Positions 8,650-28,077 of a stretch of DNA of 64,000 nucleotides are shown piece by piece. The stretch is from IMG/VR virus record IMGVR_UViG_2872147552_000001; one strand, given 5' to 3'. A program made the translations under genes and the position numbers. The DNA is from a virus (lineage: Duplodnaviria > Heunggongvirae > Uroviricota > Caudoviricetes). Below the pieces are notes generated by a model. It was not told where the DNA came from, made no database searches, and saw only the letters and a list, made by a program, of their open reading frames with translations. Within the stretch, counting starts at the first letter, position 1; each line of letters opens with the position of its first letter.

Positions 8650-9384
8650 TTACTTAGTTTTGTTTAGCAGAGAGAGAATTTCATCACTAATTTCACTCGC
8701 CTGTTTGATAGCCAATGCAGTTACCTCTTCTATGGTTGGTGACTGTTGATGCTCATGTTTGGTTTCAGTTATGACAATGTGTTCTTCACCTGAATTTGCG
8801 CATAGTGCCGCATTGACTATAAGGTTTGAGTAAGAATTTAGCAGAGCACTGTTGATAAACGCTTTCACGGTATTACTGTCTGCACCAAATACATCTTTTC
8901 TGACCGCTTCAGCCTCACAGCGAACCCCTGCAGCAACATCGTGAAGAACATGTATGGCCTTGGAGCTTGTTTGTTCACAGTACTCAATCATTATTGTCGA
9001 ATTGTTCTGTTCAACAAATGATCTGATGCCTGACGATTCACCCATAGCATCGAAGGCAGCGTGACCCGCACTAGTAGAGATATCTTCGTAGAGTTCTTCA
9101 TCGCTATCTTTTTCTTCAGGTGTCGAGGTGTCTTCATCGTCGTAATAGATATTGCCTTTAATCAGTGTTTTGGATACTTGATATAAACAATAAGAGACGA
9201 GATTTAAGCATTGGATTTTAGCTGTATTGTCCTTTGTCGCCTCGCTCTTCAGTTCTTTCGCTTCTTCAGTAAGGCTGTTGATAAGACTTTGTATTTTTTC
9301 CAACGCGTTAGGTGCACACTCCGCGTTGTCCATAAAGAATTTATAACCAGTTCCAGGGATTTCTAAACTTTTCAACTTTTTCAT
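8650..9384 (-). CDS. hypothetical protein (244 aa)
   Basis: Long ORF, acidic Ser/Glu-rich middle; no family recognised. Confidence 0.5.
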   Translation of the reverse strand: MKKLKSLEIPGTGYKFFMDNAECAPNALEKIQSLINSLTEEAKELKSEATKDNTAKIQCLNLVSYCLYQVSKTLIKGNIYYDDEDTSTPEEKDSDEELYEDISTSAGHAAFDAMGESSGIRSFVEQNNSTIMIEYCEQTSSKAIHVLHDVAAGVRCEAEAVRKDVFGADSNTVKAFINSALLNSYSNLIVNAALCANSGEEHIVITETKHEHQQSPTIEEVTALAIKQASEISDEILSLLNKTK

Positions 9385-9429
9385 TTCTTTGATAATCCTA
9401 AAAACAAACTACCAATGCTTTAATATCTG

Positions 9430-9729
9430 TTACCAGTTCCAGCACTCAAGCCCTTCAACGACCGGTGCACCACAATCAAAATGTACAGAGTCAAAGCCTA
9501 CATCAAGTACTTTCTGAATGTTAGCAATCGCGCCTTCGGATATACCATATCGACGCAAGTCCTCTTTCCAGACATCATCCTGTAACCCGGCGTGGACAAT
9601 ACAACCGCCGTCAATTTGCGAAACCCAATCCAGCTCATTGCTTGCGATCATGAATCGGCGAGCATCTTCCTCTGATGTATGAGATGAACTGATCAATGCC
9701 ACCTGGTAGGCTTGGGTAATGTTCAACAT
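9430..9729 (-). CDS. hypothetical protein (99 aa)
   Basis: ATG with GGAG RBS; class A motif in leader. Confidence 0.45.
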   Translation of the reverse strand: MLNITQAYQVALISSSHTSEEDARRFMIASNELDWVSQIDGGCIVHAGLQDDVWKEDLRRYGISEGAIANIQKVLDVGFDSVHFDCGAPVVEGLECWNW

Positions 9730-9741
9730 TTCAACCACTCC

Positions 9742-9756
9742 GAAACAATTTGTTTT
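9742..9756 (-). promoter_or_regulatory. class A palindromic leader motif
   Basis: gaaacaatttgtttt. Confidence 0.45.
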
Positions 9757-9790
9757 CTTATGTGGTTTATTATCTCCATCAACAAAAGGC

Positions 9791-9807
9791 AGAAAACAAA
9801 TTGTTTT
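9791..9807 (-). promoter_or_regulatory. class A palindromic motif, second copy
   Basis: agaaaacaaattgtttt 35 nt further upstream. Confidence 0.4.
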
Positions 9808-9844
9808 AGGTACTGTGTAAATCAGAAGGGATTGTGTCTATATG

Positions 9845-9871
9845 AAAATGCCCGGCGTGTTGCCGGGCATT
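9845..9871 (-). terminator. rho-independent terminator of metG
   Basis: Minus-strand hairpin gcccggcaacacgccgggc followed by UUUUCAU, 20 nt after the metG stop. Confidence 0.7.
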
Positions 9872-9890
9872 GCGAAGAGAGGTTGTTTAA

Positions 9891-11924
9891 TTACTTAACC
9901 TGGTGGCCAGGTTTAGCACCAGCATCCGGGCTTAACAGGAAGATATCTTTCCCGCCGGGGCCAGCAGCCATCACCATGCCTTCAGAGATACCGAAGCGCA
10001 TTTTACGTGGTGCCAGGTTAGCCACCATAATGGTGTGACGACCAATCAGTGCCTGTGGATCTGGATAAGCGGAACGGATGCCTGAGAAGACATTACGCTT
10101 TTCACCACCGAGATCCAGCGTCAGGCGAAGCAGTTTGTCAGAACCTTCTACAAACTCTGCGTTTTCAATCAGCGCCACGCGCAGGTCAACTTTGGCGAAG
10201 TCGTCAAAGGTGATAGTTTCCTGAATCGGGTCGTCAGCCAGTGGGCCAGTTACCGGTGCGGCTGTGGCTTTCACTTCTTCTTTGGATGCTTCCACCAGTG
10301 CTTCAACCTGCTTCATATCGATGCGGTTATACAGTGCCTTGAACGGATTTACTTTATGGCCCAGCAGCGGTTGCTGGATACCATCCCAGGTCAGTTCTGT
10401 ATTCAGGAATGCTTCTGCACGTTCAGTCAGTTTCGGCAGTACCGGCTTCAGGTACGTCATCAGCACGCGGAACAGGTTAATGCCCATAGAGCAAATCGCC
10501 TGCAGATCGGCATCGCGACCTTCCTGCTTCGCCACCACCCACGGAGCCTGTTCATCGACATAGCGGTTAGCCAGGTCAGCCAATGCCATGATTTCACGGA
10601 TAGCTTTACCAAATTCGCGGCTTTCCCATGCTTCGCCAATCACTTCAGCGGCATCAGTAAAGGTTTTGTACAGTTGCGGGTCAGCCAGTTCGCTTGCCAG
10701 CACGCCGTCAAAACGCTTGTTTATAAAGCCTGCATTACGGGAGGCCAGGTTAACCACTTTGTTCACGATATCGGCATTCACGCGCTGAACGAAATCCTCC
10801 AGGTTGAGATCGATATCATCAATGCGCGAAGAGAGTTTCGCAGTGTAGTAGTAACGCAGGCTGTCGGCGTCAAAATGATTCAGCCAGGTGCTGGCTTTAA
10901 TAAAGGTGCCGCGAGACTTGGACATCTTCGCGCCGTTCACCGTCACATAGCCGTGAACAAACAGGTTGGTCGGCTTGCGGAAGTTGCTGCCTTCCAGCAT
11001 GGCAGGCCAGAACAGGCTGTGGAAGTAAACAATATCTTTACCGATGAAGTGGTACAGCTCGGCGGTGGAGTCTTTCTTCCAGTATTCATCGAAGCTGGTG
11101 GTATCGCCGCGCTTGTCGCACAGATTCTTGAAGGAACCCATGTAGCCAATCGGCGCGTCCAGCCAGACGTAGAAATATTTGCCCGGCGCGTCCGGAATTT
11201 CAAAACCGAAGTAAGGCGCATCGCGGGAGATATCCCACTGTTGCAGGCCGGATTCAAACCATTCCTGCATTTTGTTCGCCACCTGCTCCTGCAACGCGCC
11301 GCTGCGGGTCCATGCCTGCAACATTTCGCTGAAAGAAGGCAGATCAAAGAAGAAGTGTTCGGAATCACGCATTACCGGGGTAGCGCCAGAAACCACCGAT
11401 TTCGGCTCGATCAATTCAGTCGGGCTATATGTTGCGCCGCAGACTTCACAGTTATCGCCGTATTGATCTGGCGCTTTACATTTCGGGCAGGTGCCTTTTA
11501 CAAAACGATCCGGCAGGAACATGCCTTTTTCCGGGTCGTACAACTGAGAGATAGTGCGGTTTTTAATAAAACCGTTCTCTTTCAGGCGAGTATAGATAAG
11601 CTCAGACAACTGACGGTTCTCTTCGCTGTGCGTCGAGTGATAGTTGTCATAGCTGATGTTAAAGCCTGCGAAATCAGTCTGGTGTTCCTGACTCATTTCG
11701 CCAATCATCTGCTCCGGTGTGATACCAAGCTGCTGCGCTTTCAGCATGATCGGCGTACCGTGGGCATCGTCGGCACAGATGAAATTAACCTCGTGGCCGC
11801 GCATTCGCTGGTAACGAACCCAGACATCAGCCTGGATGTGCTCCAGCATATGGCCGAGGTGGATTGAGCCGTTAGCGTACGGCAGCGCGCACGTCACCAG
11901 AATTTTCTTCGCGACTTGGGTCAT
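9891..11924 (-). CDS. metG: methionyl-tRNA synthetase
   Basis: 677 aa from [26 protein letters not shown] (HIGH motif) with KMSKS and C-terminal tRNA-binding domain; very close to enterobacterial MetG from memory. Confidence 0.9.
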
Positions 11925-12081
11925 AGTAGGCATTACTTCTTTGTAGTGAAAAGGGGCTTGATAGTAACAAAATGGCCTTATGTCTGCCATGTGATAACAG
12001 CATTTCTCATAAATGATTAAATGTCGTAGCTGGAGTACACTACAAGGCGACAATTGCGCAAATTAAAATAAAGGAGACGGG

Positions 12082-13182
12082 ATGAGCGAGTCCAAATCGC
12101 CGGATGCCCTGAGAGCAATGGTAGCCGGTACGCTGGCTAATTTTCAGCACCCAACCCTGAAACACAACCTGACTACGCTTAAAGCGTTACACCATGTTGC
12201 GTTGATGGATGACACACTGCATGTCGAACTAATCATGCCTTTCGTGTGGAATAAGCCTTTTGAAGACCTGAAAGAGCAATGTAGTGGTGATCTGCTCCGT
12301 ATCACTGGCGCAAAGGCTATTGACTGGAAGCTGTCGTACAACATTGCCACGCTTAAGCGCGTCAAAAACCAACCAGGCATTAATGGCGTTAAGAACATTA
12401 TCGCCGTCAGCTCAGGCAAGGGCGGCGTGGGTAAATCCTCCACGGCGGTAAACCTGGCACTGGCGTTGGCTGCTGAAGGTGCGAAAGTTGGTATTTTGGA
12501 TGCCGATATCTATGGTCCATCAATTCCAACCATGCTGGGTGCGGAAAACCAACGTCCAACCTCACCTGACGGTACTCACATGGCACCTATCATGTCTCAT
12601 GGCCTGGCAACCAACTCTATTGGTTATCTGGTCACCGACGACAATGCAATGGTGTGGCGTGGACCGATGGCCAGCAAGGCGCTGATGCAGATGTTGCAGG
12701 AAACTCTATGGCCTGATCTGGACTATCTCGTTCTCGATATGCCGCCGGGCACTGGTGATATTCAGTTGACGCTGGCGCAGAACATTCCTGTAACTGGTGC
12801 GGTTGTGGTAACTACGCCGCAAGACATCGCGCTGATCGATGCGAAGAAAGGCATTGTGATGTTCGAAAAAGTCGAAGTGCCGGTACTGGGTATCGTCGAA
12901 AACATGAGTGTGCATATTTGCAGTAACTGCGGTCATCACGAGCCAATTTTTGGCACCGGTGGCGCACAGAAACTGGCCGAGAAATACAACACGCAGTTGT
13001 TAGGCCAAATGCCACTTCATATCTCTCTTCGTGAAGATCTGGATAACGGAACACCAACCGTTATTAGTCGTCCAGATAGCGAATTTACGGCTATTTATCG
13101 TGACCTCGCAGATCGCGTTGCCGCCCAAATGTATTGGCAAGGTGAAGTAATACCTGGCGAAATCGCATTCCGCGCAGTGTGA
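12082..13182 (+). CDS. apbC: Fe-S cluster carrier ATPase ApbC/Mrp
   Basis: P-loop SSGKGGVGKS, CxxC (CSNCGHH); divergent from metG as in enterobacterial chromosomes. Confidence 0.9.
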   Translation: MSESKSPDALRAMVAGTLANFQHPTLKHNLTTLKALHHVALMDDTLHVELIMPFVWNKPFEDLKEQCSGDLLRITGAKAIDWKLSYNIATLKRVKNQPGINGVKNIIAVSSGKGGVGKSSTAVNLALALAAEGAKVGILDADIYGPSIPTMLGAENQRPTSPDGTHMAPIMSHGLATNSIGYLVTDDNAMVWRGPMASKALMQMLQETLWPDLDYLVLDMPPGTGDIQLTLAQNIPVTGAVVVTTPQDIALIDAKKGIVMFEKVEVPVLGIVENMSVHICSNCGHHEPIFGTGGAQKLAEKYNTQLLGQMPLHISLREDLDNGTPTVISRPDSEFTAIYRDLADRVAAQMYWQGEVIPGEIAFRAV

Positions 13183-13183
13183 T

Positions 13184-13210
13184 AAAAAGGCGGTGCATTG
13201 CACCGCCTAA
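13184..13210. terminator. bidirectional terminator between apbC and umuD'-like gene
   Basis: aaaaaggcggtgcattgcaccgcc hairpin; T-run on minus strand. Confidence 0.6.
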
Positions 13211-13219
13211 TCAGTTCTC

Positions 13220-13609
13220 CTACATCACGGGACAATCATCAAACTCGCCACTTCTTGCGTCGTTGATAATGTGAGTGATCACACCAAACACGGCATTGCT
13301 GCCCGTGCATCCATCGTCATCCTTTGGCAATGCTTCCTTCTTACCGGTTCTTAAATCCTCCAGATGCTGACGTGGGTACTTCCGGTATCTTTTTACGCGA
13401 TATTCCCCATCCAGAGCGCATACAAGCAGAGAACCATCAACCGGGGTAAGCGAGGAATCGACCACCAGCAATGCACCCTGTAATATTCCCTCACGATGAT
13501 GACTATCAGCTGCCCTCATGAAGTAGGTCGCTGAAGGATGTCTAATTATCTGCTGATCAAGAGAAATACGGCTCTCAGCATAATCCGCCGCAGGAGAAGG
13601 GAAGCCCAT
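13220..13609 (-). CDS. umuD: UmuD'-like protein (pre-truncated, HumD-like)
   Basis: 129 aa beginning M-GFPSPAADY, the residue after the UmuD self-cleavage site; retains S24 peptidase fold motifs (HPSATYF, Ser and Lys positions). Confidence 0.7.
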   Translation of the reverse strand: MGFPSPAADYAESRISLDQQIIRHPSATYFMRAADSHHREGILQGALLVVDSSLTPVDGSLLVCALDGEYRVKRYRKYPRQHLEDLRTGKKEALPKDDDGCTGSNAVFGVITHIINDARSGEFDDCPVM

Positions 13610-13625
13610 AGCGTTTTGCCCTCAA

Positions 13626-13645
13626 TACTGTTCATTTATACAGTA
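13626..13645. promoter_or_regulatory. LexA (SOS) box
   Basis: TACTGTtcatttatACAGTA = CTGT-N8-ACAG, 17-36 nt upstream of the umuD'-like start. Confidence 0.7.
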
Positions 13646-13728
13646 TACATGAAAGAAGCTCACTCAGTGCAACTGATCGGTACATAGCACCAGACAAAGG
13701 AACGTTATTTTCTCGAACAAGAAAAGGT

Positions 13729-13743
13729 AGAAAACAAATTGTT
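13729..13743 (-). promoter_or_regulatory. class A palindromic motif
   Basis: gaaaacaaattgttt; part of the 50-bp unit repeated at 18003-18038. Confidence 0.45.
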
Positions 13744-13744
13744 T

Positions 13745-13765
13745 AAGGCCACAACTAGTGGCCTT
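13745..13765 (-). terminator. conserved GGCCAC hairpin
   Basis: aaggccacaactagtggcctt right after the gene ending at 13782. Confidence 0.45.
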
Positions 13766-13781
13766 AATGGAGAAGGGATGC

Positions 13782-14306
13782 TTATTGGCTATGGCTAAAA
13801 ATCAAATGAGACACTTCATTTGGTTGTAGCTCGTCAAGATCCGGGGCCACAAAACCTTTTCCAAAAGACTTCACAAGTGATTCACCAGCCGCATCATTGT
13901 CACCTATTACGCGAAAGTCATACGGCAGCATTGCCAGTTGACGACGTAATCCTGCTGAGAAAGTCGAACCTAACAGCGCCCACGAATTTCCGCCCGCGTT
14001 GTGCACTGCTGCACTTTTAAAAATCGACTCAGTTATCCATATCGGTCCATCTTTTAAAGGAAGATAGGTTCCCCATAGTAGCTGTCTGCCGTTCGCTCGT
14101 GTGAAATACCGGGCCATCTTCGGATTGCTATGCTGCTTAGGAGCGCCTGGTCTGTATGTCTGATACCCGGCCAACATCCCATCAAACCTGTATAGAGGGA
14201 ACGTAACAACTCCTTCGCTTTCATCGATCCACTGTCTATATGGATGCACATCATGGCGGTAGTTACGAGTTAGCAAATGAGCTTCCAGCTTTCCATATTT
14301 GGTCAT
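13782..14306 (-). CDS. hypothetical protein
   Basis: ORF track frame; start at MTKYGK ATG (alternative ATG at 14345 would overlap the upstream gene). Confidence 0.4.
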   Translation of the reverse strand: MTKYGKLEAHLLTRNYRHDVHPYRQWIDESEGVVTFPLYRFDGMLAGYQTYRPGAPKQHSNPKMARYFTRANGRQLLWGTYLPLKDGPIWITESIFKSAAVHNAGGNSWALLGSTFSAGLRRQLAMLPYDFRVIGDNDAAGESLVKSFGKGFVAPDLDELQPNEVSHLIFSHSQ

Positions 14307-14319
14307 AACTTCGCATCCC

Positions 14320-15135
14320 TCATAACACTTCCCATTTATCACCATATTTCTCCATAGCTCTTAGCCAGTAAACATGGCCACTAGGCATAGTGATGTGAGG
14401 CTCGCCAAACTCTTCTCCATGCACATCAAAGATGTCCCCAACAGAGAATTGGGGGATTTCTACGCCGTTTTCACCTATATGCGTAATTCGTATACGTTTC
14501 GGTTGAGATTCTCCCCCTTTGAGCGAGTTGTTCACTGCTCTGGCAATCTTCTCCCGCAATTGCTGCGTTCCGTGGTACTGAACCGCAATATCCCTCAACT
14601 CATTCACCAGTTCTCGAATCTGGTGATCTTTAAGCTCATTATTTGAGTGATGGGTAACAACTCTGGTTAATTCACCCTTGTCTTTTGCTCTTACGTATGC
14701 AGCTCTTGTGCATTCGACCCATGTATTACCGCCTACATTAACTTCGTAGATTAGGCTGGACTTATCTGTCAATTCGGAACAAATACGGGCCGTGGTCTGG
14801 CAACTAGAGCATTCGCAGTTATCGCGGAAACCGTGATCTACCGGTCGAGAAAGAGGTTTAACTTTTTCATCCAACTTCATCACAGCATCGTGATAAGCGT
14901 TCCAGCCGTCATCTTTACCAAGTTGATAAATCTCTGAAGGCTCCATGTAGTCTATATCGCAACCTTCTTCATCCGATCTATCTGGTCGCTTCCCTGGTAA
15001 TCGCTCATAAAAACGATTTCTGTCTCGACGTTCGGCTCTCAGTGCTAACGCAAGAAGTTGCTCAAGCGAGGTATTTGCACCAGCAATAATTTCATTGAGA
15101 ATATCTTCTGTGAGATCTTTCGCTACCGTGCTCAT
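14320..15135 (-). CDS. hypothetical protein (271 aa)
   Basis: Long ORF with Cys cluster CECSSCQ; operon context. Confidence 0.5.
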   Translation of the reverse strand: MSTVAKDLTEDILNEIIAGANTSLEQLLALALRAERRDRNRFYERLPGKRPDRSDEEGCDIDYMEPSEIYQLGKDDGWNAYHDAVMKLDEKVKPLSRPVDHGFRDNCECSSCQTTARICSELTDKSSLIYEVNVGGNTWVECTRAAYVRAKDKGELTRVVTHHSNNELKDHQIRELVNELRDIAVQYHGTQQLREKIARAVNNSLKGGESQPKRIRITHIGENGVEIPQFSVGDIFDVHGEEFGEPHITMPSGHVYWLRAMEKYGDKWEVL

Positions 15136-15515
15136 TTATCTCTCTCAGTATGTTGCGATGGCGTAAATTTGACGACATCAAATATTTTGGATGGCATCAA
15201 CTTTATCCGCGAGCTTAGTTCGGCTCTTCTCTGTAATGCGGTTAATAATGTTTTCGTTCTGACGCCTTCGTGTATCCTCATCCCTGGCACAAGAACTACA
15301 TCGCAGGGGAGATGCTCAGGTGACAAATCATTTTGGGCATCGCTAATCAGTCGTGTAATCTCTCTTTCAAGCCGACCGCCTAGCTCTGTTTTAGTGCAAT
15401 GTTCTGACCAATCACCAGCCTCAAGCAGCGCGAGAATGCTTAAAATATCGTCCAATAGATCAGTGGTATTATCGACTTCCTTCTGAAGCTCACCGGCTAC
15501 TGATTTATGCATCAT
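15132..15515 (-). CDS. hypothetical protein (127 aa)
   Basis: Start/stop overlap with neighbours. Confidence 0.45.
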   Translation of the reverse strand: MMHKSVAGELQKEVDNTTDLLDDILSILALLEAGDWSEHCTKTELGGRLEREITRLISDAQNDLSPEHLPCDVVLVPGMRIHEGVRTKTLLTALQRRAELSSRIKLMPSKIFDVVKFTPSQHTERDK

Positions 15516-16165
15516 TCGTCATCCTCATCCGAGTCATCCTCATCACAGGATGAGAGTAGTGGGTTAGTCATTCGCCCTACTTGAGTGGCGTAGCCACGCC
15601 GACAGAGATTGCGCAGCACACTGTATATTTCGAACATCTCGGTTCGTTCATCGCCAACATCAAGCTCAGATGCTATAGCGTGGCATTCAGTCGCGAGAGC
15701 CGATATTTTCTGAAATAACTCTGCATTATTCACTGTTCGACTCCTGCGGCGTTCTGGTAGTGACATCCAGTGTGTGACATTGCTAATCAGACCATATTCA
15801 TTAGTTTGAGGATGGTTGCCGTTAGCGTCTCCGTATTTAAGACTCTCCATAAAGCCATAATGCCTATCACCATTAACGCTCACAAAGCCGTAATAAGCAG
15901 GTATAACGCCGATCTCACACGTAACCAGTAAAGGAAAACTAGTTCTCCAATTTAGCTCGCCAATTACAGGCATTCGCTCACTACAGCTTATCCAACCATC
16001 CTTAGATGCGGCTGTATTGGCATAGGCCTTACGGTGCTTCTGTAACTCTGCTGCAATCGCTCTCACGACTTCAACTGGTGCCCTTGCAGCAAACTCAATG
16101 TTGGTGATCAGCTCATTAAGATATTTCTCGCTTGGGTAGCATTTCTTATTGTTAACGGTGGTCAT
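15512..16165 (-). CDS. hypothetical protein, DUF551-like phage protein
   Basis: WISCSERMP...THWMSLP pattern; acidic C-terminal tail. Confidence 0.45.
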   Translation of the reverse strand: MTTVNNKKCYPSEKYLNELITNIEFAARAPVEVVRAIAAELQKHRKAYANTAASKDGWISCSERMPVIGELNWRTSFPLLVTCEIGVIPAYYGFVSVNGDRHYGFMESLKYGDANGNHPQTNEYGLISNVTHWMSLPERRRSRTVNNAELFQKISALATECHAIASELDVGDERTEMFEIYSVLRNLCRRGYATQVGRMTNPLLSSCDEDDSDEDDE

Positions 16166-16350
16166 TAGGCAGCTCTCTCAACAACAAGCAATTCGTCGTA
16201 GTCATAATCAGTTTCGGAACCATCCGTACCGAACAGAGTCACTTTGTCATTTTCCATCCAAAAAGATTTAACCGCACATTGTTGACCTTTAGATGTTATG
16301 AGCACATCACCAGGGATTACGTCTTCAGCGCGAACCTCTAGTGTTCTCAT
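16165..16350 (-). CDS. hypothetical protein (61 aa)
   Basis: Tightly packed between neighbours. Confidence 0.35.
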   Translation of the reverse strand: MRTLEVRAEDVIPGDVLITSKGQQCAVKSFWMENDKVTLFGTDGSETDYDYDELLVVERAA

Positions 16351-19215: not shown

Positions 19216-20899
19216 ATTTAACGCGTTTGAAAACGTATACGCTGACTGTGATCCCTGTGTCTTCAAACTCGTTGGTAAACGACTTCCCTCTGGCATAAAC
19301 GTAATTATCCATCGTCATCCAGTCCAGTATTGGCGCAGTGCCCGGCAATACTGCTACAAGACGCCCGCCGACTTTCAGATGCCCCAGCGCAGCCAGCGTG
19401 TGCTCTCTATGACGACCAAGCGAGTACGGCGGGTTCATAACGATTTTGTCGAACTGATAACCTACGTTGTCCTCAGACCACTTTATGAAGTCGCAGCAAA
19501 TCGTGTTCGTATACCCTTTTCCGCGCAGGATATCAGCGAAGAGAGGTGCGATTTCTATGCAGGTAACATCTTCCAGATCGGCGTTAATATAGGCCAGAAG
19601 ATCCCCACGTCCGGCTTGAGGCTCCAGCAGCTTCTCACCAGGCTTCAATTCAGTGGCTCTGGCAACGTACTCAGCAATCAAGCGTGGGGTAGGGTAGAAC
19701 TGGTGTGATTTTGTATCCGGTATTAAACCGGTAGCCACAATCGTATTTAGCGTATGGACGATGTCATACGGGAACTGCCAGTGCTTTTTCTCCTGCACGC
19801 CGCCAATGAAGCTCAGTGTGCGCTCAAGCTCTTCCACCTGCGACTTCTGGAGAGCTGAATCAGAGAAGTACCATACGCCTTTGTCTTTGCTCAATCGCCC
19901 GTCACGAAGCGCAGTGCGAACCGGCACGGAGATCGTCTTCTGGATTAACCCGAACTGCTTTGGTGCCCGTGTTTTTGGCGCGGTGCGACATGGCGCGGGG
20001 ATTGCAGCAGGCATACTGTAAGCCAGCACCTCATTCAACTTCCAGGCCACGTCAGGATGTATTTCAAAGTGAACGTTGCCGTTCTTGAACATCTTCACGC
20101 GCATCAGATTTCCATCGACGTTCATCCAGTCACCGGTCTGGCAGTCGTTTGCCCGATACGCAGCTGATAGCACCTCAGCAGTGCGGTTGATGGTAATAAA
20201 TTCTTTGTGCGCGAAGAAATGAAGCAAGACACGCAGATCGTCGATGTAGTCCTCTTTGCGATAGTTCACGCTAACGCTGTCCCGCCAGAAATCAGAAATG
20301 CAGTCAGCGATTATCAGCCGCTCGCTGAAACCGTTTGTCTTATTTGTCTTGTGCGCAGGACTCAGCGCCTTAAACAAGCCATACACGCGCTCAGAGAGAT
20401 ATTTGTGCCTGTCATTCAGCAAATTAAGCATCGTGGGTATGACCGTTTCTGCTTTGAACTCCGGTACACCAACGAACTCTTTAACCTTCATCTGGTAGCC
20501 GGTTCTGTCAGTTTTGATGACTTCCTGTTTGCCCTCTATAAACTGCTCGCGCCACTCATCTCGACGGGAAGCTGGCATGATCAGCAAAACGTTAGTCATG
20601 TCCGTGACCTTCCTCCAGTACTCGGCCCAAATATTCTGTTTCACCCATTCCAGATCGACTTTATCCAACCAACCTCGATTTAAACGCGAGCGATCTTCAT
20701 CTGGTCGATGGTTTAGTCTCAGCAGGCGATTAATCATGTTGTGGCGTTCGTCGCCATAAACGAAGTCGTGTACCTGATACATGAAGGCGATCTCTTTCTC
20801 GCACTCGGCCACAATTTCGTGGATGACGTTCATTTCCTGCCGATAGTCGATAGCAGTGTTTGAGTTGGCATCGTCGATGATGGAAAGGGCTGTATTCAT
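19214..20899 (-). CDS. DNA N6-adenine methyltransferase with large N-terminal domain of unknown function
   Basis: C-terminal third has FYPTP, EPQAGRGDLL (SAM-binding) and NPPY catalytic motif; about 380 aa N-terminal with no recognised motif. Confidence 0.65.
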   Translation of the reverse strand: MNTALSIIDDANSNTAIDYRQEMNVIHEIVAECEKEIAFMYQVHDFVYGDERHNMINRLLRLNHRPDEDRSRLNRGWLDKVDLEWVKQNIWAEYWRKVTDMTNVLLIMPASRRDEWREQFIEGKQEVIKTDRTGYQMKVKEFVGVPEFKAETVIPTMLNLLNDRHKYLSERVYGLFKALSPAHKTNKTNGFSERLIIADCISDFWRDSVSVNYRKEDYIDDLRVLLHFFAHKEFITINRTAEVLSAAYRANDCQTGDWMNVDGNLMRVKMFKNGNVHFEIHPDVAWKLNEVLAYSMPAAIPAPCRTAPKTRAPKQFGLIQKTISVPVRTALRDGRLSKDKGVWYFSDSALQKSQVEELERTLSFIGGVQEKKHWQFPYDIVHTLNTIVATGLIPDTKSHQFYPTPRLIAEYVARATELKPGEKLLEPQAGRGDLLAYINADLEDVTCIEIAPLFADILRGKGYTNTICCDFIKWSEDNVGYQFDKIVMNPPYSLGRHREHTLAALGHLKVGGRLVAVLPGTAPILDWMTMDNYVYARGKSFTNEFEDTGITVSVYVFKRVK

Positions 20900-21002
20900 A
20901 ATTGCACCATTAAGAAGTGATTTGTTTAATGGTGCAATTATTTCAAAAATGAAAAGGTACTAAATAGAAATAAACAGGCAATCCTTCAAATAAAGGCATT
21001 GG

Positions 21003-21614
21003 CTAATCATACTTGGAGGTATTTATCACCAGAATTTTGTTTGTATAAATCTTCTTAATATCCCATGTGACATTACCGGAATACCATTGACCGTTATATA
21101 CTTGGTTTCCAGTTGCACCTGTCATTGTTACATAGACAGGTCTGTCGTAATCGGTTCGTCTATAGTTATATACTCCAACCATAGCAGGCATTACCGCACA
21201 TGGATACCCCATATCTATTGTAAATTGAGGGTCAGAAATAGTGATAAGTTTCGCATCAAGGGGCATCATCTCACCGTGATACACCATTGCGCCTGCGCTG
21301 TTATACATGGCAATGCCATAGCCAGAATGTGGTAACACCATATCAGAAAAAGCATAAACTGTTATTGTTCCGGGGCTACCATTTACCTGATGCAATCTGA
21401 GAGCATTGTATCCGTTACTATGCTCATGAATAAACATCATGTTCGCCTTATTACTGCTTTTTATGAAGAAAAAGCATGATTTGTTTGATGGGATTGATGT
21501 TTGAAAAACAGAACCTTTAGATGTAGACATTGTCCCTTTATTAATCAGATTTTGCGGAGTAAATTCTGGACTCATCCACAAACTTCCATCTGATTGAGTA
21601 ATTGACATCCCGAA
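21003..21614 (-). CDS. hypothetical protein, AT-rich island
   Basis: Tyr/Gly/Asn-rich; hydrophobic N-terminus; low GC. Confidence 0.35.
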   Translation of the reverse strand, partial: FGMSITQSDGSLWMSPEFTPQNLINKGTMSTSKGSVFQTSIPSNKSCFFFIKSSNKANMMFIHEHSNGYNALRLHQVNGSPGTITVYAFSDMVLPHSGYGIAMYNSAGAMVYHGEMMPLDAKLITISDPQFTIDMGYPCAVMPAMVGVYNYRRTDYDRPVYVTMTGATGNQVYNGQWYSGNVTWDIKKIYTNKILVINTSKYD

Positions 21615-21619
21615 CATAA

Positions 21620-21901
21620 TTATCCCCAGTATGTGTATATGTAAGAACCAAGCCCCGTATATAAATTTGACCAACTAACCGTATTTCCATTAATAGTAAC
21701 TGTTGGAACAGGTAAATTAATGTAGTTGTCGTTGTTAAGAGGCATCAATGACCACACGGCATGTAGCGATTTACCCGGTGGCGGATTGGAGTACGTCTTA
21801 GAGCCTGATGACGCAGTAAATCGATCAAGAAAAAAAATAGGAGTAAGGAAGCCAGTAACGTTAATTCCTTTATTGTTGTAAATCCCTGTACCGTATGCCA
21901 T
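21620..21901 (-). CDS. hypothetical protein, AT-rich island (possibly upstream part of a frameshifted gene)
   Basis: Good RBS; overlaps the next ORF in a different frame. Confidence 0.35.
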   Translation of the reverse strand: MAYGTGIYNNKGINVTGFLTPIFFLDRFTASSGSKTYSNPPPGKSLHAVWSLMPLNNDNYINLPVPTVTINGNTVSWSNLYTGLGSYIYTYWG

Positions 21902-21956
21902 TTTTCATCCTTGTTTTTTATCAACACAATATGGCCGATCATGCGGCCATATCAGA

Positions 21957-22526
21957 TCAATTAGAGCTTTGAAAGGCTTTGTGTGGCTGTGTTGCGAGGT
22001 TATGTCGATGGCTTAACTCACGCATCATGTCTTCAAGCCGACTCTTTGTGTCGTCGAGTTGGTCGGCCATTGCTCCCAAAAGCTGACGAACGGCCATCGG
22101 ATCATCGCTGTTTAGTGATGGCATTTTATAACCCGCCTGAGAAGACATAAGATTGAACGCAGACATCAACATCGTTAGAGAGGATTTAAGCCCAGCAATT
22201 TCACGATCTTTGCTGGCAATAATCGCCTCACTCTTGTTAGTGTCATCAGTTCGTTGAGTCTCGCTCACCATATCCAAAGTCGCCTGCAACTTATCAGCGC
22301 GCTCTTTTTCAGCAAGATAATGAACACCGAAATGATGTGCTAAAGCTACAACCTGAGTTGGCTCTTCAAAGGTGGACTCAAAATTAAGTGCTGTAACCAC
22401 TCTCTCAAATATGGAAACGTCTTCTATTCCTCGAAGAATGGCTAACATTTTGACCAGTTCATTAGCATCCATTTCTTCGAATAAGGCGTTTTGTTCATCA
22501 GCTATCGCTTTGCATTTCTTGCACAT
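21957..22526 (-). CDS. hypothetical protein (189 aa)
   Basis: ORF; class A motif in leader. Confidence 0.5.
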   Translation of the reverse strand: MCKKCKAIADEQNALFEEMDANELVKMLAILRGIEDVSIFERVVTALNFESTFEEPTQVVALAHHFGVHYLAEKERADKLQATLDMVSETQRTDDTNKSEAIIASKDREIAGLKSSLTMLMSAFNLMSSQAGYKMPSLNSDDPMAVRQLLGAMADQLDDTKSRLEDMMRELSHRHNLATQPHKAFQSSN

Positions 22527-22544
22527 GTGTTTTTCCTAATGCTT

Positions 22545-22558
22545 AAACAAGTTGTTTT
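22545..22558 (-). promoter_or_regulatory. class A palindromic leader motif
   Basis: aaacaagttgtttt about 20 nt upstream of the ATG. Confidence 0.45.
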
Positions 22559-22640
22559 CTTATTGGCTTTATTGTGATGTGGCATAAAAGGGGAGCAAGC
22601 TAAACGTAAAGGTGCAAACTCTCTATTTCGGTCAACGAAA

Positions 22641-22664
22641 CACAAGGGCCATTTGGCCCTTGTC
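22641..22664 (-). terminator. terminator hairpin
   Basis: cacaagggccatttggcccttgtg right after the small ORF stop. Confidence 0.5.
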
Positions 22665-22665
22665 A

Positions 22666-22824
22666 TTAACACGTTGCTTTACGGACTAGCGGATAAGCGA
22701 AGTAGATCGCCAGACCAATGAGGACGCCATCAGAAATGACAGACATCATCTTTCCCGTAAAATCCACCAACACCGCCATCACCAGAAGAGCAATGACGGT
22801 CACAAGCCGGAATCTCTCAAGCAT
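22666..22824 (-). CDS. small two-TM membrane protein (52 aa), not in ORF track
   Basis: ATG overlaps the TAA of the TerB-like gene (TAATG); MLERFRLVTVIALLVMAVLVDFTGKMMSVISDGVLIGLAIYFAYPLVRKATC. Confidence 0.4.
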   Translation of the reverse strand: MLERFRLVTVIALLVMAVLVDFTGKMMSVISDGVLIGLAIYFAYPLVRKATC

Positions 22825-23249
22825 TAGAGATAAGCATCCAGTGACAACTGAAGCGCCTGTGCGATCTTTTTCAGTGCCAGCTCTTCTTGTTCGCCAATAC
22901 CGTCTTGGTCGGCAATATCAAGGCACAGACACAGTACATCTACTGCATCATTAGTCCCGGCCACATCAGCCAGCTCACGTAAAGCCTGGGCATTAGCGCG
23001 GCGCGGTGAGGCTTCGTATTGAGCACGGATATTGGCGCTCATTTGGGCAATCTCACCAGCAAACGGAGAAAACGCAGGCAGAGCTGCAATTGTTTTCTCA
23101 AGAATGGAAATTTCCTTTGCGTCGCATGTGCCATCGGCATAGGAGATCATGTACGCGCCCCACACGGTGGCTTCAACCGCATCACGGTTCTCCATTTTTT
23201 TGACTTCAATAACAGCTTTACGAGTTTTCTTTTTGAATAAACCTAACAT
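22824..23249 (-). CDS. TerB-like (tellurite-resistance TerB domain) protein
   Basis: Two helical repeats with D-G/D-x-D-x-x-E pattern (DGTCDAKEISILEK, DQDGIGEQEELALKK); AAGGAAA RBS. Confidence 0.5.
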   Translation of the reverse strand: MLGLFKKKTRKAVIEVKKMENRDAVEATVWGAYMISYADGTCDAKEISILEKTIAALPAFSPFAGEIAQMSANIRAQYEASPRRANAQALRELADVAGTNDAVDVLCLCLDIADQDGIGEQEELALKKIAQALQLSLDAYL

Positions 23250-26551: not shown

Positions 26552-27361
26552 TCATCCAATAGTGTACTCCGCGACAAACTTCTTAACGATCGGTGATTCT
26601 TCGTTCAATGTTAGATTTCCACCGTCTCTAACAGCAATTCCTGTAGCTGGAAATACAGCCATCATTTGCCCAGCCTGAGTTGACGCAGTGTTAAGCGGAT
26701 ACGGTTTTTCTGGATTGCTCATTAAAGCAATCTTAATACTATTACTTGTAGCCTTCTTTTCTGTGAGAAGGTGTCTCATGGAAATTACCGTGTAAACACT
26801 AATATCTGGACCTCCGCTAAACCAATTAAGAAGGTTTAATATCTTATCCTTTGCTTTGACAGGCGCGTTTTCGTAAGCGTCTAAGAAAATATCTTTTTCT
26901 AAGCCTGCTTTATTGAAAAACAAATCATCTTTATCACTTAAAGTAAAACGAGGACCTCTTGCAGTACGAGCTTTTTTATTTGTATTGCTATCATTTGACT
27001 GTTGAACTTTTAATTCATCATTAACCTCAACACACTCTTCAACCTCAATAAACCCCAATTGTTCTGGCTCGTTTTCGGCAGATTCAACACTTTCAGCCTT
27101 AATTACGTTTATAGGCTCATGAGCTAACTCCAACTCATTTAAAGCGGAGCTGAAATCACCTGCTTTTCCTTCATTGAACAGTTCTTCGGCAACATCATCA
27201 GAACTCATGGCTACGCCAGCATCGAGGCCGAGAAGCAGATCGTCAATATCATCAGTATTTTCAACCTGTGCAGCTTTTTTTACTGGTTCATCAAGTGATT
27301 GCAACATGGCTGTCAGCTCATCCAGATCATCATTTGTCATTACATTTTCAACCGAACTCAT
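26552..27361 (-). CDS. acidic hypothetical protein (269 aa)
   Basis: Highly acidic N-terminal half. Confidence 0.5.
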   Translation of the reverse strand: MSSVENVMTNDDLDELTAMLQSLDEPVKKAAQVENTDDIDDLLLGLDAGVAMSSDDVAEELFNEGKAGDFSSALNELELAHEPINVIKAESVESAENEPEQLGFIEVEECVEVNDELKVQQSNDSNTNKKARTARGPRFTLSDKDDLFFNKAGLEKDIFLDAYENAPVKAKDKILNLLNWFSGGPDISVYTVISMRHLLTEKKATSNSIKIALMSNPEKPYPLNTASTQAGQMMAVFPATGIAVRDGGNLTLNEESPIVKKFVAEYTIG

Positions 27362-27482
27362 GTAAGTCTCCTTCTGTTTGGTTACATTTGCGTTTCGATG
27401 GCTACATTTTGACTAAACCTATCAGGCGGAAAAGTATTAAATACAGGCAGGAAATGATTGAAAGGCGACTGTTCTTTAAAAG

Positions 27483-27515
27483 AAAGCCTACTTTAAACTT
27501 TTTAAAGTAGGCTTT
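27483..27515 (-). terminator. rho-independent terminator
   Basis: aaagcctactttaaactttttaaagtaggcttt with T-runs on both sides. Confidence 0.55.
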
Positions 27516-27519
27516 TGTT

Positions 27520-28077
27520 TTACACAATTTCAGAGGGTAATTTAAAAAATCCGTACTTATTACGTGCCTTAAAGAAGCATTGCATCATTAAGTTTGTGTC
27601 ATATAAGGCACTATGTGCTTTGGCATGATCGTATATAAAGCCAAGAGAGAAGGCCAACTCTTCAAGGCGGGGACGTTTACCGTCTTCTGTGGCCCACAAT
27701 CCCGATAACATAGTATCTATAACAGGAACTTCTGGCAGTCTTACTCCATACCCTGAAAACTCGTGTCGAATAAATGGTATATCAAATGCTTCGCCGTTAT
27801 GAGCAACCCACACACTACATGCCCCCATATAAGCGCCAATTTCGCTGGCATGATTTGACAACAAAGGTTCAGCTGCGAGCTGTTCCAATGAAATGCCATG
27901 AACGGCTTGAGCTTTCGGATCTATGTTTCTGCGAGGGTTAAAACGCATCTCCAGACTATCAATATGTCTCTGTGTCTCCAGTTCATAGCGGGTAATTGCG
28001 ATTTCAATAATTTTATGACCAGCAAGGAAATCCAGTCCCGTAGACTCGATATCGATGCCTGCAACAATCGTTGTCAT
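27520..28077 (-). CDS. DnaQ-like 3'-5' exonuclease (DEDDh)
   Basis: Exo I GIDIESTG, Exo II HNGEAFD, Exo III YDHAKAHSALYD. Confidence 0.75.
   Translation of the reverse strand: MTTIVAGIDIESTGLDFLAGHKIIEIAITRYELETQRHIDSLEMRFNPRRNIDPKAQAVHGISLEQLAAEPLLSNHASEIGAYMGACSVWVAHNGEAFDIPFIRHEFSGYGVRLPEVPVIDTMLSGLWATEDGKRPRLEELAFSLGFIYDHAKAHSALYDTNLMMQCFFKARNKYGFFKLPSEIV

Follow-up and report, generated by a model that had tools for sequence, protein, structure and literature searches.

Genes at the locus

Two small genes lie on the minus strand of the 64-kb stretch of viral DNA analysed here (the window), between a gene for a DUF4942 methyltransferase (561 aa) and a gene for a 189-aa protein, and thus not adjacent to the gene for the central tail fibre J. 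Two SSU5-like phage-plasmids of ~108 kb match the window closely, Escherichia phage CMS-2020a at 99.5% identity and phage Cyrano at 98.5%. The window corresponds approximately to positions 40-104 kb of Cyrano, so the tail genes fall outside it, and the evidence on J presented below is therefore taken from close relatives. The features of the locus are as follows.

20959..21975, no strand assigned: inserted AT-rich segment of ~1.0 kb (the cassette plus short flanks), delimited by alignment with SSU5, GC content and empty sites
21003..21617, minus strand: gene B, 204 aa, a 'hand-like' all-beta protein and candidate receptor-binding protein (RBP); PHROG 425
21618..21627, minus strand: A/B junction, consisting of GGGGA, TAA, 2 nt and ATG (junction sequence ...TGGGGATAATTATG...)
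21620..21901, minus strand: gene A (93 aa), encoding an 'Ig-like' protein, a small beta-sandwich that is accessory to the tail-tip module; PHROG 557
21908..21912, minus strand: Shine-Dalgarno sequence AAGGA, 6 nt 5' of the gene A ATG (21901-21899), identified in the sequence
21929..21952, minus strand: GC-rich hairpin with a 9-bp core, an inverted repeat between the 189-aa gene and gene A

The two minus-strand ORFs are in different frames, as the earlier note had reported, but the overlap it described exists only with a mechanically called ORF that starts at a TTG (21674). The true start of B is the ATG at 21617, given that every homologue begins there with M-(F/Y)-G-M-S-I-T, and the RefSeq gene calls are identical (a 615-nt gene and a 282-nt gene). 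The TAA of gene A occupies 21622-21620 and is followed by 2 nt and then the ATG of B; GGGGA, the Shine-Dalgarno sequence of B, sits inside the last codons of A, 5 nt before that ATG. Judged from its layout, the junction would suit translational coupling of the two genes. No slippery sequence was found there. The hairpin at 21929..21952 has an RNA folding energy of -17.5 kcal/mol (z -3.1) and is not a canonical terminator, since it lacks a U-run and the terminator scan did not report it. Consensus scans, which are weak evidence in this respect, found neither a sigma-70-like promoter nor a canonical terminator within 20900-21960.

The hydrophobic N-termini formerly ascribed to the ORFs are not a property of the genes. 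The maximum 19-residue Kyte-Doolittle mean is 0.94 in A and 1.10 in B, and LVKFIYGAWFLHIHILGII, the hydrophobic stretch, lies in the TTG extension, which is not conserved and reads the 3' end of gene A in another frame. Hydropathy and lipobox checks revealed no signal peptide, lipobox or transmembrane segment in A or B, and on these negative results we rejected a reading of either one as a membrane or exported protein.

Base composition and acquisition of the cassette

Apart from the overlap and the hydrophobic N-termini, what the earlier note observed holds up: an AT-rich island that carries two ORFs with products rich in Tyr, Gly and Asn. Windows of 300 nt fall to a GC content of 0.34-0.35 within 20850-21750, compared with 0.49-0.54 in the methyltransferase (0.50 for the gene as a whole). 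The segment 20959-21975 has a GC content of 0.383, where the window averages 0.460 (sd 0.031, 1-kb windows), and is among the lowest 1.7% of 1-kb windows, with the regions around 1400-2300 and 26600-27800 just as low. The bias is also synonymous, because GC3 is 0.37 in both genes and 0.60 in the methyltransferase. Tyr, Asn and Gly are enriched about twofold in A and B: Tyr makes up 8.6% and 6.9% of the two proteins (3.2% in the long ORFs of the window), Asn 11.8% and 7.4% (4.5%), and Gly 10.8% and 8.3% (6.4%). The neighbours of the cassette are co-oriented genes of early or accessory type (RNase H, TerB-like, methyltransferase, Ea22-like), not a late operon.

The evidence supports separate acquisition of the cassette, as the earlier note had proposed on compositional grounds. 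In SSU5 the methyltransferase gene and the homologue of the 189-aa gene are immediate neighbours; homology with the window stops near 20958 and restarts near 21975, and ~80 bp of SSU5 intergenic DNA, including a terminator hairpin, is replaced by the cassette segment. The same empty site occurs in some E. coli sister plasmids (pMRY16-002_2; two-piece matches). We found no convincing direct repeats or target-site duplication flanking 20959-21975, and for this reason rejected a mobile-element mechanism; the insertion has the appearance of intergenic DNA replaced by recombination.

The pair also keeps its own base composition wherever it is found. The GC content of window-type pairs is 0.36-0.42 in every carrier genome (~0.38-0.42 for the segment) and is independent of that of the J gene nearby, even beside a J gene with a GC3 of 0.71. 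In the comparison with PhiR41_1, dS is 0.65-0.84 in the cassette and 0.07-0.09 in the flanking genes, so that, between sister plasmids, synonymous sites have diverged 8-10 times as much in the cassette as in the flanks. For A and B, dN/dS is 0.08-0.10. Both genes are thus under purifying selection, and alleles of the cassette have been exchanged between conserved flanks. A plasmid with only ~70% DNA identity carries a third allele (~50% amino acid identity) in the same neighbourhood, and the window sequence is present unchanged in many plasmids.

Families, folds and genomic neighbours

Both proteins match a PHROG family over their full length, A matching PHROG 557 (residues 1-93, E 4.7e-29) and B matching PHROG 425 (residues 1-204, E 2.2e-72). 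Searches of Pfam and NCBIfam returned nothing significant for A or B, with only a sub-threshold match to DUF6453 in Pfam. The PHROG labels ('outer membrane protein' for 557 and 'membrane associated protein' for 425, category 'moron') are misannotations, as is the C39 label that B carries in RefSeq.

The pair is found in ~280 phage records, always as two genes and nearly always beside the central tail fibre, and A and B align end to end with the homologues in JenP1, 933W, tonijn, SSU5 and JLBYU60. Its nearest relative is the pair of Nonagvirus JenP1 (83% identity in amino acids, 78% in nucleotides), which follows J in antisense. A lambda-like contig has the pair (75%) after J, Stx phage 933W (61%) after a J-like ORF and before lom, and Warwickvirus tonijn and FritzSarasin (42%) convergent with J. 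The more distant pairs of Dhillonvirus JLBYU60 (26%; hhalign probability 96.7%) and SSU5 (22-29%) lie, respectively, after J and before a Cor-like gene, and after the fibre genes and before cor. In Yersinia P400 the pair also directly adjoins a J-like fibre. The junction between A and B differs by lineage, being a 2-nt spacer here, an ATGA overlap in the SSU5 type and an in-frame stop in Yersinia P400. Among 5,426 complete E. coli genomes, 150 carry the cassette.

The earlier note suspected a receptor-interacting protein, and the literature supports this in a specific sense, in that the PHROG 557/425 family has been proposed to cap J-like fibres and bind outer-membrane receptors. Matusiak et al. 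2025 modelled 'Ig-like' and 'hand-like' proteins capping J-like spikes without a receptor-binding domain (RBD), with the hand-like protein binding FhuA or BamA; they considered both proteins to be misannotated as membrane proteins, and the membrane-affinity estimates were low (PMC12309495). The published support for the tail-tip role consists of AlphaFold models and one tentative SDS-PAGE band (PMC12309495). The tip pairs of JLBYU60, Traversvirus 24B/933W and Littlefixvirus belong to the same families as the pair in the window, with the same sizes and order (~93 aa, then ~204 aa). Like the published pairs (PMC12309495), A and B have all-beta predicted folds, no membrane targeting and an RBD-less J-like fibre, but they are encoded ~60 kb from J in an early-type block rather than directly downstream of it.

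The predicted model of B resembles a solved phage receptor-binding protein. It shares its fold with the LptD-binding RBP of Oekolampad and Rtp (Rtp44, PDB 9rpt), although that protein is a single chain of ~310 aa with no detectable sequence homology, as opposed to the split A and B, and Rtp44 is accompanied by the exclusion lipoprotein Rtp45, which has no counterpart beside the cassette. At the level of sequence, profile searches against PDB sequences found no solved relative for A, B or a profile of the A-B fusions described below. An outer-membrane fold, also suggested earlier, is not supported. The N-terminal 20 residues of B have low pLDDT and yet are the best-conserved stretch among members that are only 22% identical.

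J tips and two loci in phage-plasmids

The J proteins of pair-adjacent phages and of Cyrano end in ...V(Y/K)D.NG.L(R/A)V.IG.. and lack a lambda-type RBD; the set compared comprised JenP1, 933W, tonijn, FritzSarasin, SSU5, JLBYU60, the lambda-like contig, Yersinia P400 and Cyrano. In Cyrano, SSU5 and six further plasmids, J ends in ...NGQRIDVYDDNNVLRVRIG(R/L)L, a C-terminus that can be aligned with those of JenP1, tonijn, 933W and JLBYU60. This end, and with it an RBD-less tip, is found in the cassette-bearing plasmids Cyrano, pMTY18780-3, pM-64-197 and pEC7518-111k. On the Cyrano map, the end of J is at 22.4 kb and the pair at 82 kb. Plasmids whose pair types are only ~22% identical share the same final 70 residues of J, which makes the docking of both pair types on one tip an assumption. 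An apparent covariation in the first four records, with the penultimate residue of J being R with the cassette and L with the tail pair, was broken by six more plasmids (pLAO7 combines a tail pair with R, and pM-64-197 a cassette with L), and we rejected it.

Phage-plasmids tend to have the pair at one of two loci. In PLSDB, 253 plasmids carry it at 264 places, 118 of the cassette type and 132 of the tail-module type, and ~11 of the 253 (~4%), for instance pHH12_P1, have both loci filled. This pattern of one pair per plasmid is derived from the aggregate PLSDB counts and ten sampled records. Cyrano, pEC7518-111k, pMTY18780-3 and pM-64-197 have only the cassette and no tail-module pair, the fibre being followed straight by the holin. 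Conversely, SSU5, pMRY16-002_2 (inspected over its whole length), pLAO7, pECOH89 and p503829_100 have an empty cassette site and a tail-module pair of 84 aa and 202 aa.

The two types also differ in what accompanies them. A gene for a Cor-like lipoprotein lies behind all seven SSU5/JLBYU60-type pairs and at none of ten window-type loci; the 64-kb window contains no cor-like match, and there is no lipobox ORF beside the cassette. In addition to the pair, the phage-plasmids encode a large side fibre of P1 S-like or SSU5 type.

Receptors and genetics of related phages

The sub-clades of the pair sit in phages with experimentally different receptors. JLBYU60 depends on FhuA and Stx phages use BamA (PMC12309495), while FritzSarasin depends on BtuB. 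In the literature, no receptor is documented for the nearest relatives JenP1, JenP2 and BRET, which have the JenP1-type allele; Lewis 2023 took J to be the RBP and did not address the pair. In Drexlerviridae, Dhillonvirus and Queuovirinae, terminal-receptor use varies with the allele of a horizontally exchanged, hypervariable locus that lies downstream of gpJ (Maffei et al. 2021, PMC8594841; 10.64898/2026.04.02.716166). In FritzSarasin, this locus consists of an 89-aa gene, A and B only, so that B is its sole sizeable gene, and the loci of FritzSarasin (BtuB) and JLBYU60 (FhuA) both contain homologues of A and B. The cassette resembles this 'bona fide RBP locus' (PMC8594841) in being exchanged as divergent alleles between conserved flanks, and differs from it in position and in the lack of a cognate superinfection-exclusion lipoprotein with the window allele.

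Displaced RBP genes have precedents in gp38 of Krischvirus and pb5 of T5. The FhuA-binding pb5 of T5 with Llp, and the Cor proteins of phi80, N15 and T1, follow the same logic, in which a small separate RBP sits non-covalently on the central fibre. FhuA-type loci pair the RBP with a receptor-blocking lipoprotein, as in the SSU5-type pair followed by cor. T5 pb5 is, however, unrelated to B and much larger, and the window cassette has neither cor nor llp.

The genetic evidence comes from Stx2 phage Sp5, in which ORF72 (92 aa) and ORF73 (205 aa), the orthologues of A and B, were deleted one at a time (PMC5155283). Neither is among the nine essential genes or the two whose mutants had reduced infectivity; mutants in ORF72 or ORF73 still form plaques on K-12 and lysogenise it. 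By contrast, the essential genes include the fibre ORF67 and the J-like ORF71 (PMC5155283). Given that the deletions have no listed defect, the pair is dispensable for infection of K-12, at least in that podovirus.

A possible tail-tip module

We consider it probable that the two genes form a detachable receptor-recognition module for the tail tip of the siphovirus virion of this phage-plasmid. The central fibre J of this phage group ends in a short conserved tip domain without a receptor-binding domain of its own. In the mechanism that we infer, B would cap the trimeric tip of J via its conserved N-terminal segment and a C-terminal strand, and the variable loops of its beta-sandwich may bind an outer-membrane protein of the host. 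We suspect that A is an obligate partner of B, serving as an adaptor or co-folding subunit, because A and B are one polypeptide in some relatives. Encoded ~60 kb from the tail operon at a site where it would have arrived by horizontal transfer, the module would replace an ancestral block of the pair plus cor that is kept by SSU5 and many sister plasmids. Transcription of the cassette probably occurs by read-through together with the co-oriented genes around it, and A and B may be translationally coupled. A swap to the window-type pair would shift the terminal receptor away from FhuA, a change predicted from the lack of the FhuA-blocking cor, which is the constant companion of the other pair type.

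Several observations speak against a tail-tip role. The cassette lies in a block of early or accessory type, outside the late operon. The pairs of JenP1 and tonijn run antisense to or convergent with the tail genes, an arrangement common among morons and exclusion genes. The Sp5 orthologues are dispensable on K-12, one and the same J tip occurs with pair types of only ~22% identity, the suspected covariation at that tip failed, and plasmids with both loci filled do exist.

We also entertain, as a rather unlikely extension, that SSU5-like phage-plasmids have a second, remote 'plug-in' tail-tip locus in their early or accessory region with at least three divergent alleles, through which the receptor could be changed (in the window, away from FhuA and with loss of cor) without touching the tail operon. 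If this were the case, plasmids with both loci filled might produce mixed or dual-specificity virions. In a stronger version, non-late expression would give the module a second role in the plasmid-prophage state. The existence of split and fused forms would, in addition, make the 'Ig-like' protein an integral domain of the RBP and not a separate trimeric tip.

Alternative explanations

The pair could be associated with the virion or tail and yet not bind a receptor, for example as a tip-assembly chaperone, a stabilizing cap or a conditional host-range accessory. Essential recognition would then be provided by the side fibre or J, with the pair needed, for instance, only on O-antigen-bearing or non-K-12 hosts. 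We regard this as possible but not likely. It would account for the infection of K-12 by the Sp5 mutants when ORF67 and ORF71 are essential, it is consistent with the additional large side fibre, and a structural or chaperone-like function was left open in the literature (PMC12309495). On the other hand, the receptor-tracking locus downstream of gpJ in FritzSarasin (BtuB) is essentially this pair alone, and B as modelled is similar to a solved receptor-binding protein. A receptor binder, unlike a chaperone, would also be expected to show the linkage to the receptor-specific exclusion gene cor that is seen in one sub-clade.

An improbable explanation is a non-structural accessory ('moron') cassette that aids the lysogen or infected cell, for example by superinfection exclusion or envelope modification. 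The database names and the PHROG 'moron' category imply a role in the envelope, the composition is foreign and the gene block is early-type and unrelated to the tail, and the pair is antisense to the tail genes in some phages, adjoins lom and is dispensable in Sp5. As in the case of the lambda-type morons lom and bor, the insert is small and compositionally foreign, and the pair is a neighbour of lom in Stx and lambda-like phages. Nevertheless, given the lack of a signal peptide, lipobox or transmembrane segment and the low published membrane affinity, A and B cannot reach the envelope by known routes. In contrast to the lambda-type morons, no promoter or terminator of its own was detected for the cassette by the scans described above. 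The pattern of one pair per plasmid and the constant adjacency to an RBD-less J are hard to explain for an optional gene, and the true exclusion genes (cor) are separate neighbours. Thus, although its base composition, distinct from that of its neighbours, is one hallmark of a moron, the term that the earlier note used is not supported for the cassette in its strict sense, the cassette lacking a detected sigma-70 promoter, a canonical terminator and exported products.

It is very improbable that a frameshift has split a single gene into A and B, whether in a pseudogene or by programmed frameshifting. This idea drew on the adjacency of ORFs in different frames, and single-chain relatives of 307-325 aa do exist. 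An exhaustive profile search showed the family to be small (114 clusters), with ~10 of the 114 being genuine A-B fusions of that length, in which residues 1-78 match A (probability 93.5%) and residues 109-309 match B (98.4%). The fused protein is colinear across both Cyrano genes, and one of the fusions is encoded between a J-type C-terminus and an antisense gene for a Cor-like lipoprotein. The intuition of a split gene is therefore echoed in evolution. For the window it is refuted: ~280 phage records and ~250 plasmids as a rule have two separate genes, each with a start and a Shine-Dalgarno site of its own, purifying selection acts on both, the junctions vary by lineage, and there is no slippery sequence.

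The chance that B is a cysteine peptidase of the C39 family, as the PGAP product name of WP_000467662.1 ('C39 peptidase domain') has it, is negligible: Cys48, Cys140 and His114 are invariant in the family alignment, but B has no match to a C39 profile and no papain-like alpha+beta fold.

Of the interpretations offered by the earlier note, receptor interaction and separate acquisition have found support, while the strict moron, the frameshift split and the outer-membrane fold have not.

Implications for phage-plasmids

The gene family, the type of locus and the idea of a detachable RBP are already known. In the literature consulted, three features appear not to have been described: that phage-plasmids have an ectopic locus complementary to the one in the tail module, that cor is strictly linked to a single sub-clade, and that natural fusions of A and B exist. 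The labels 'outer membrane protein', 'membrane associated protein', 'moron' and 'C39 peptidase' are misleading for tools that predict receptors. If the pair is dispensable, as in Sp5, the cassette would be ordinary accessory phage DNA.

SSU5-like phage-plasmids are common in E. coli, and determinants of their host range therefore affect their spread. If the cassette is a receptor binder, its presence or absence, together with the loss of cor linked to it, would allow receptor use to be predicted from sequence, and the two genes would constitute a compact and naturally portable unit for retargeting siphoviruses.

Other sequences of the window

Features of the window outside genes A and B:
20898-20941, perfect inverted repeat of 16 bp with a 12-nt loop
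21929-21952, GC-rich hairpin after the 189-aa gene; extended stem -17.5 kcal/mol, z -3.1
within 22502-23249, TciA/TerB-like (141 aa) and TciB/DUF3927-like (52 aa) genes, among the downstream neighbours

Folded as RNA, the inverted repeat reaches -20.6 kcal/mol (z -6.1). The ribosome-binding region of the DUF4942 methyltransferase gene falls within the 3' arm, together with the first two bases of the start codon. The repeat, which is kept in part in SSU5, might control translation as a hairpin or serve as an operator. The GC-rich hairpin lies where a canonical terminator stands in SSU5 (AGGGGGCGAAAGCCCCC and then a T-run). Given that the hairpin in the window lacks a U-run, transcription likely continues past it and reaches the cassette by read-through.

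Two further 1-kb stretches of the window (~1400-2300 and ~26600-27800; GC 0.37-0.39) are as AT-rich as the cassette, and may be additional horizontally acquired inserts. Cyrano annotates the TciA/TerB-like and TciB/DUF3927-like genes as homologues of the P1 Tci-like tellurite/colicin-resistance genes; they are typical accessory content of this early-type block.

Annotation of genes A and B

Gene B (WP_000467662.1, 204 aa; window 21003-21617, corresponding to 1544-2158 of the compared record L013) is named a "cysteine peptidase family C39 domain-containing protein" by RefSeq/PGAP. This name is rejected, given that no Pfam or NCBIfam match backs it and that nothing in the structure model favours it. 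The PHROG names "outer membrane", "membrane associated" and "moron" for the A/B pair are equally unsupported.

Two tail-module B genes, SSU5_024 (L006 7001-7609) and the one at L010 36943-37551, apparently lack 14 codons at their annotated starts. In pHH12 the homologue begins MYGSKIYRSDGKVW and overlaps gene A by ATGA, and with this start the conserved N-terminal motif of the family is regained.

Variation among related plasmids and phages

Loci in relatives, each in its own coordinates:
L014 25481-26343 and L015 31333-32286, pHH12_P1 loci
L005 5452-5727 (tonijn_18) and L026 2912-3181 (bas04_0025), ~90-aa gene upstream of A
L025 276-1226, natural A-B fusion gene (316 aa), immediately 3' of a J-type C-terminus
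L025 1220-1477, antisense, Cor-like lipoprotein gene (85 aa; lipobox ...VVSSASC) after the fusion

In the plasmid pHH12_P1 (CP058914.1) both loci are occupied: the tail module has a pair accompanied by cor, and the ectopic cassette is intact. The cassette adjoins a truncated DUF4942 methyltransferase gene, with a type I restriction-modification system (HsdR/HsdM) also present there. Given that an IS1203 copy lies inside the J/fibre region of the cassette-bearing phage-plasmid pEC7518-111k (NZ_CP085184.1; L022 ~8750-16260), and that no intact J gene is annotated in this region, pEC7518-111k may be tail-defective.

At BtuB-type Warwickvirus loci, a third gene of ~90 aa lies immediately upstream of A, and might encode a cognate exclusion factor or else a further tip component. 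The fusion and the Cor-like gene in L025 are an FhuA-type module in compact, single-chain form.
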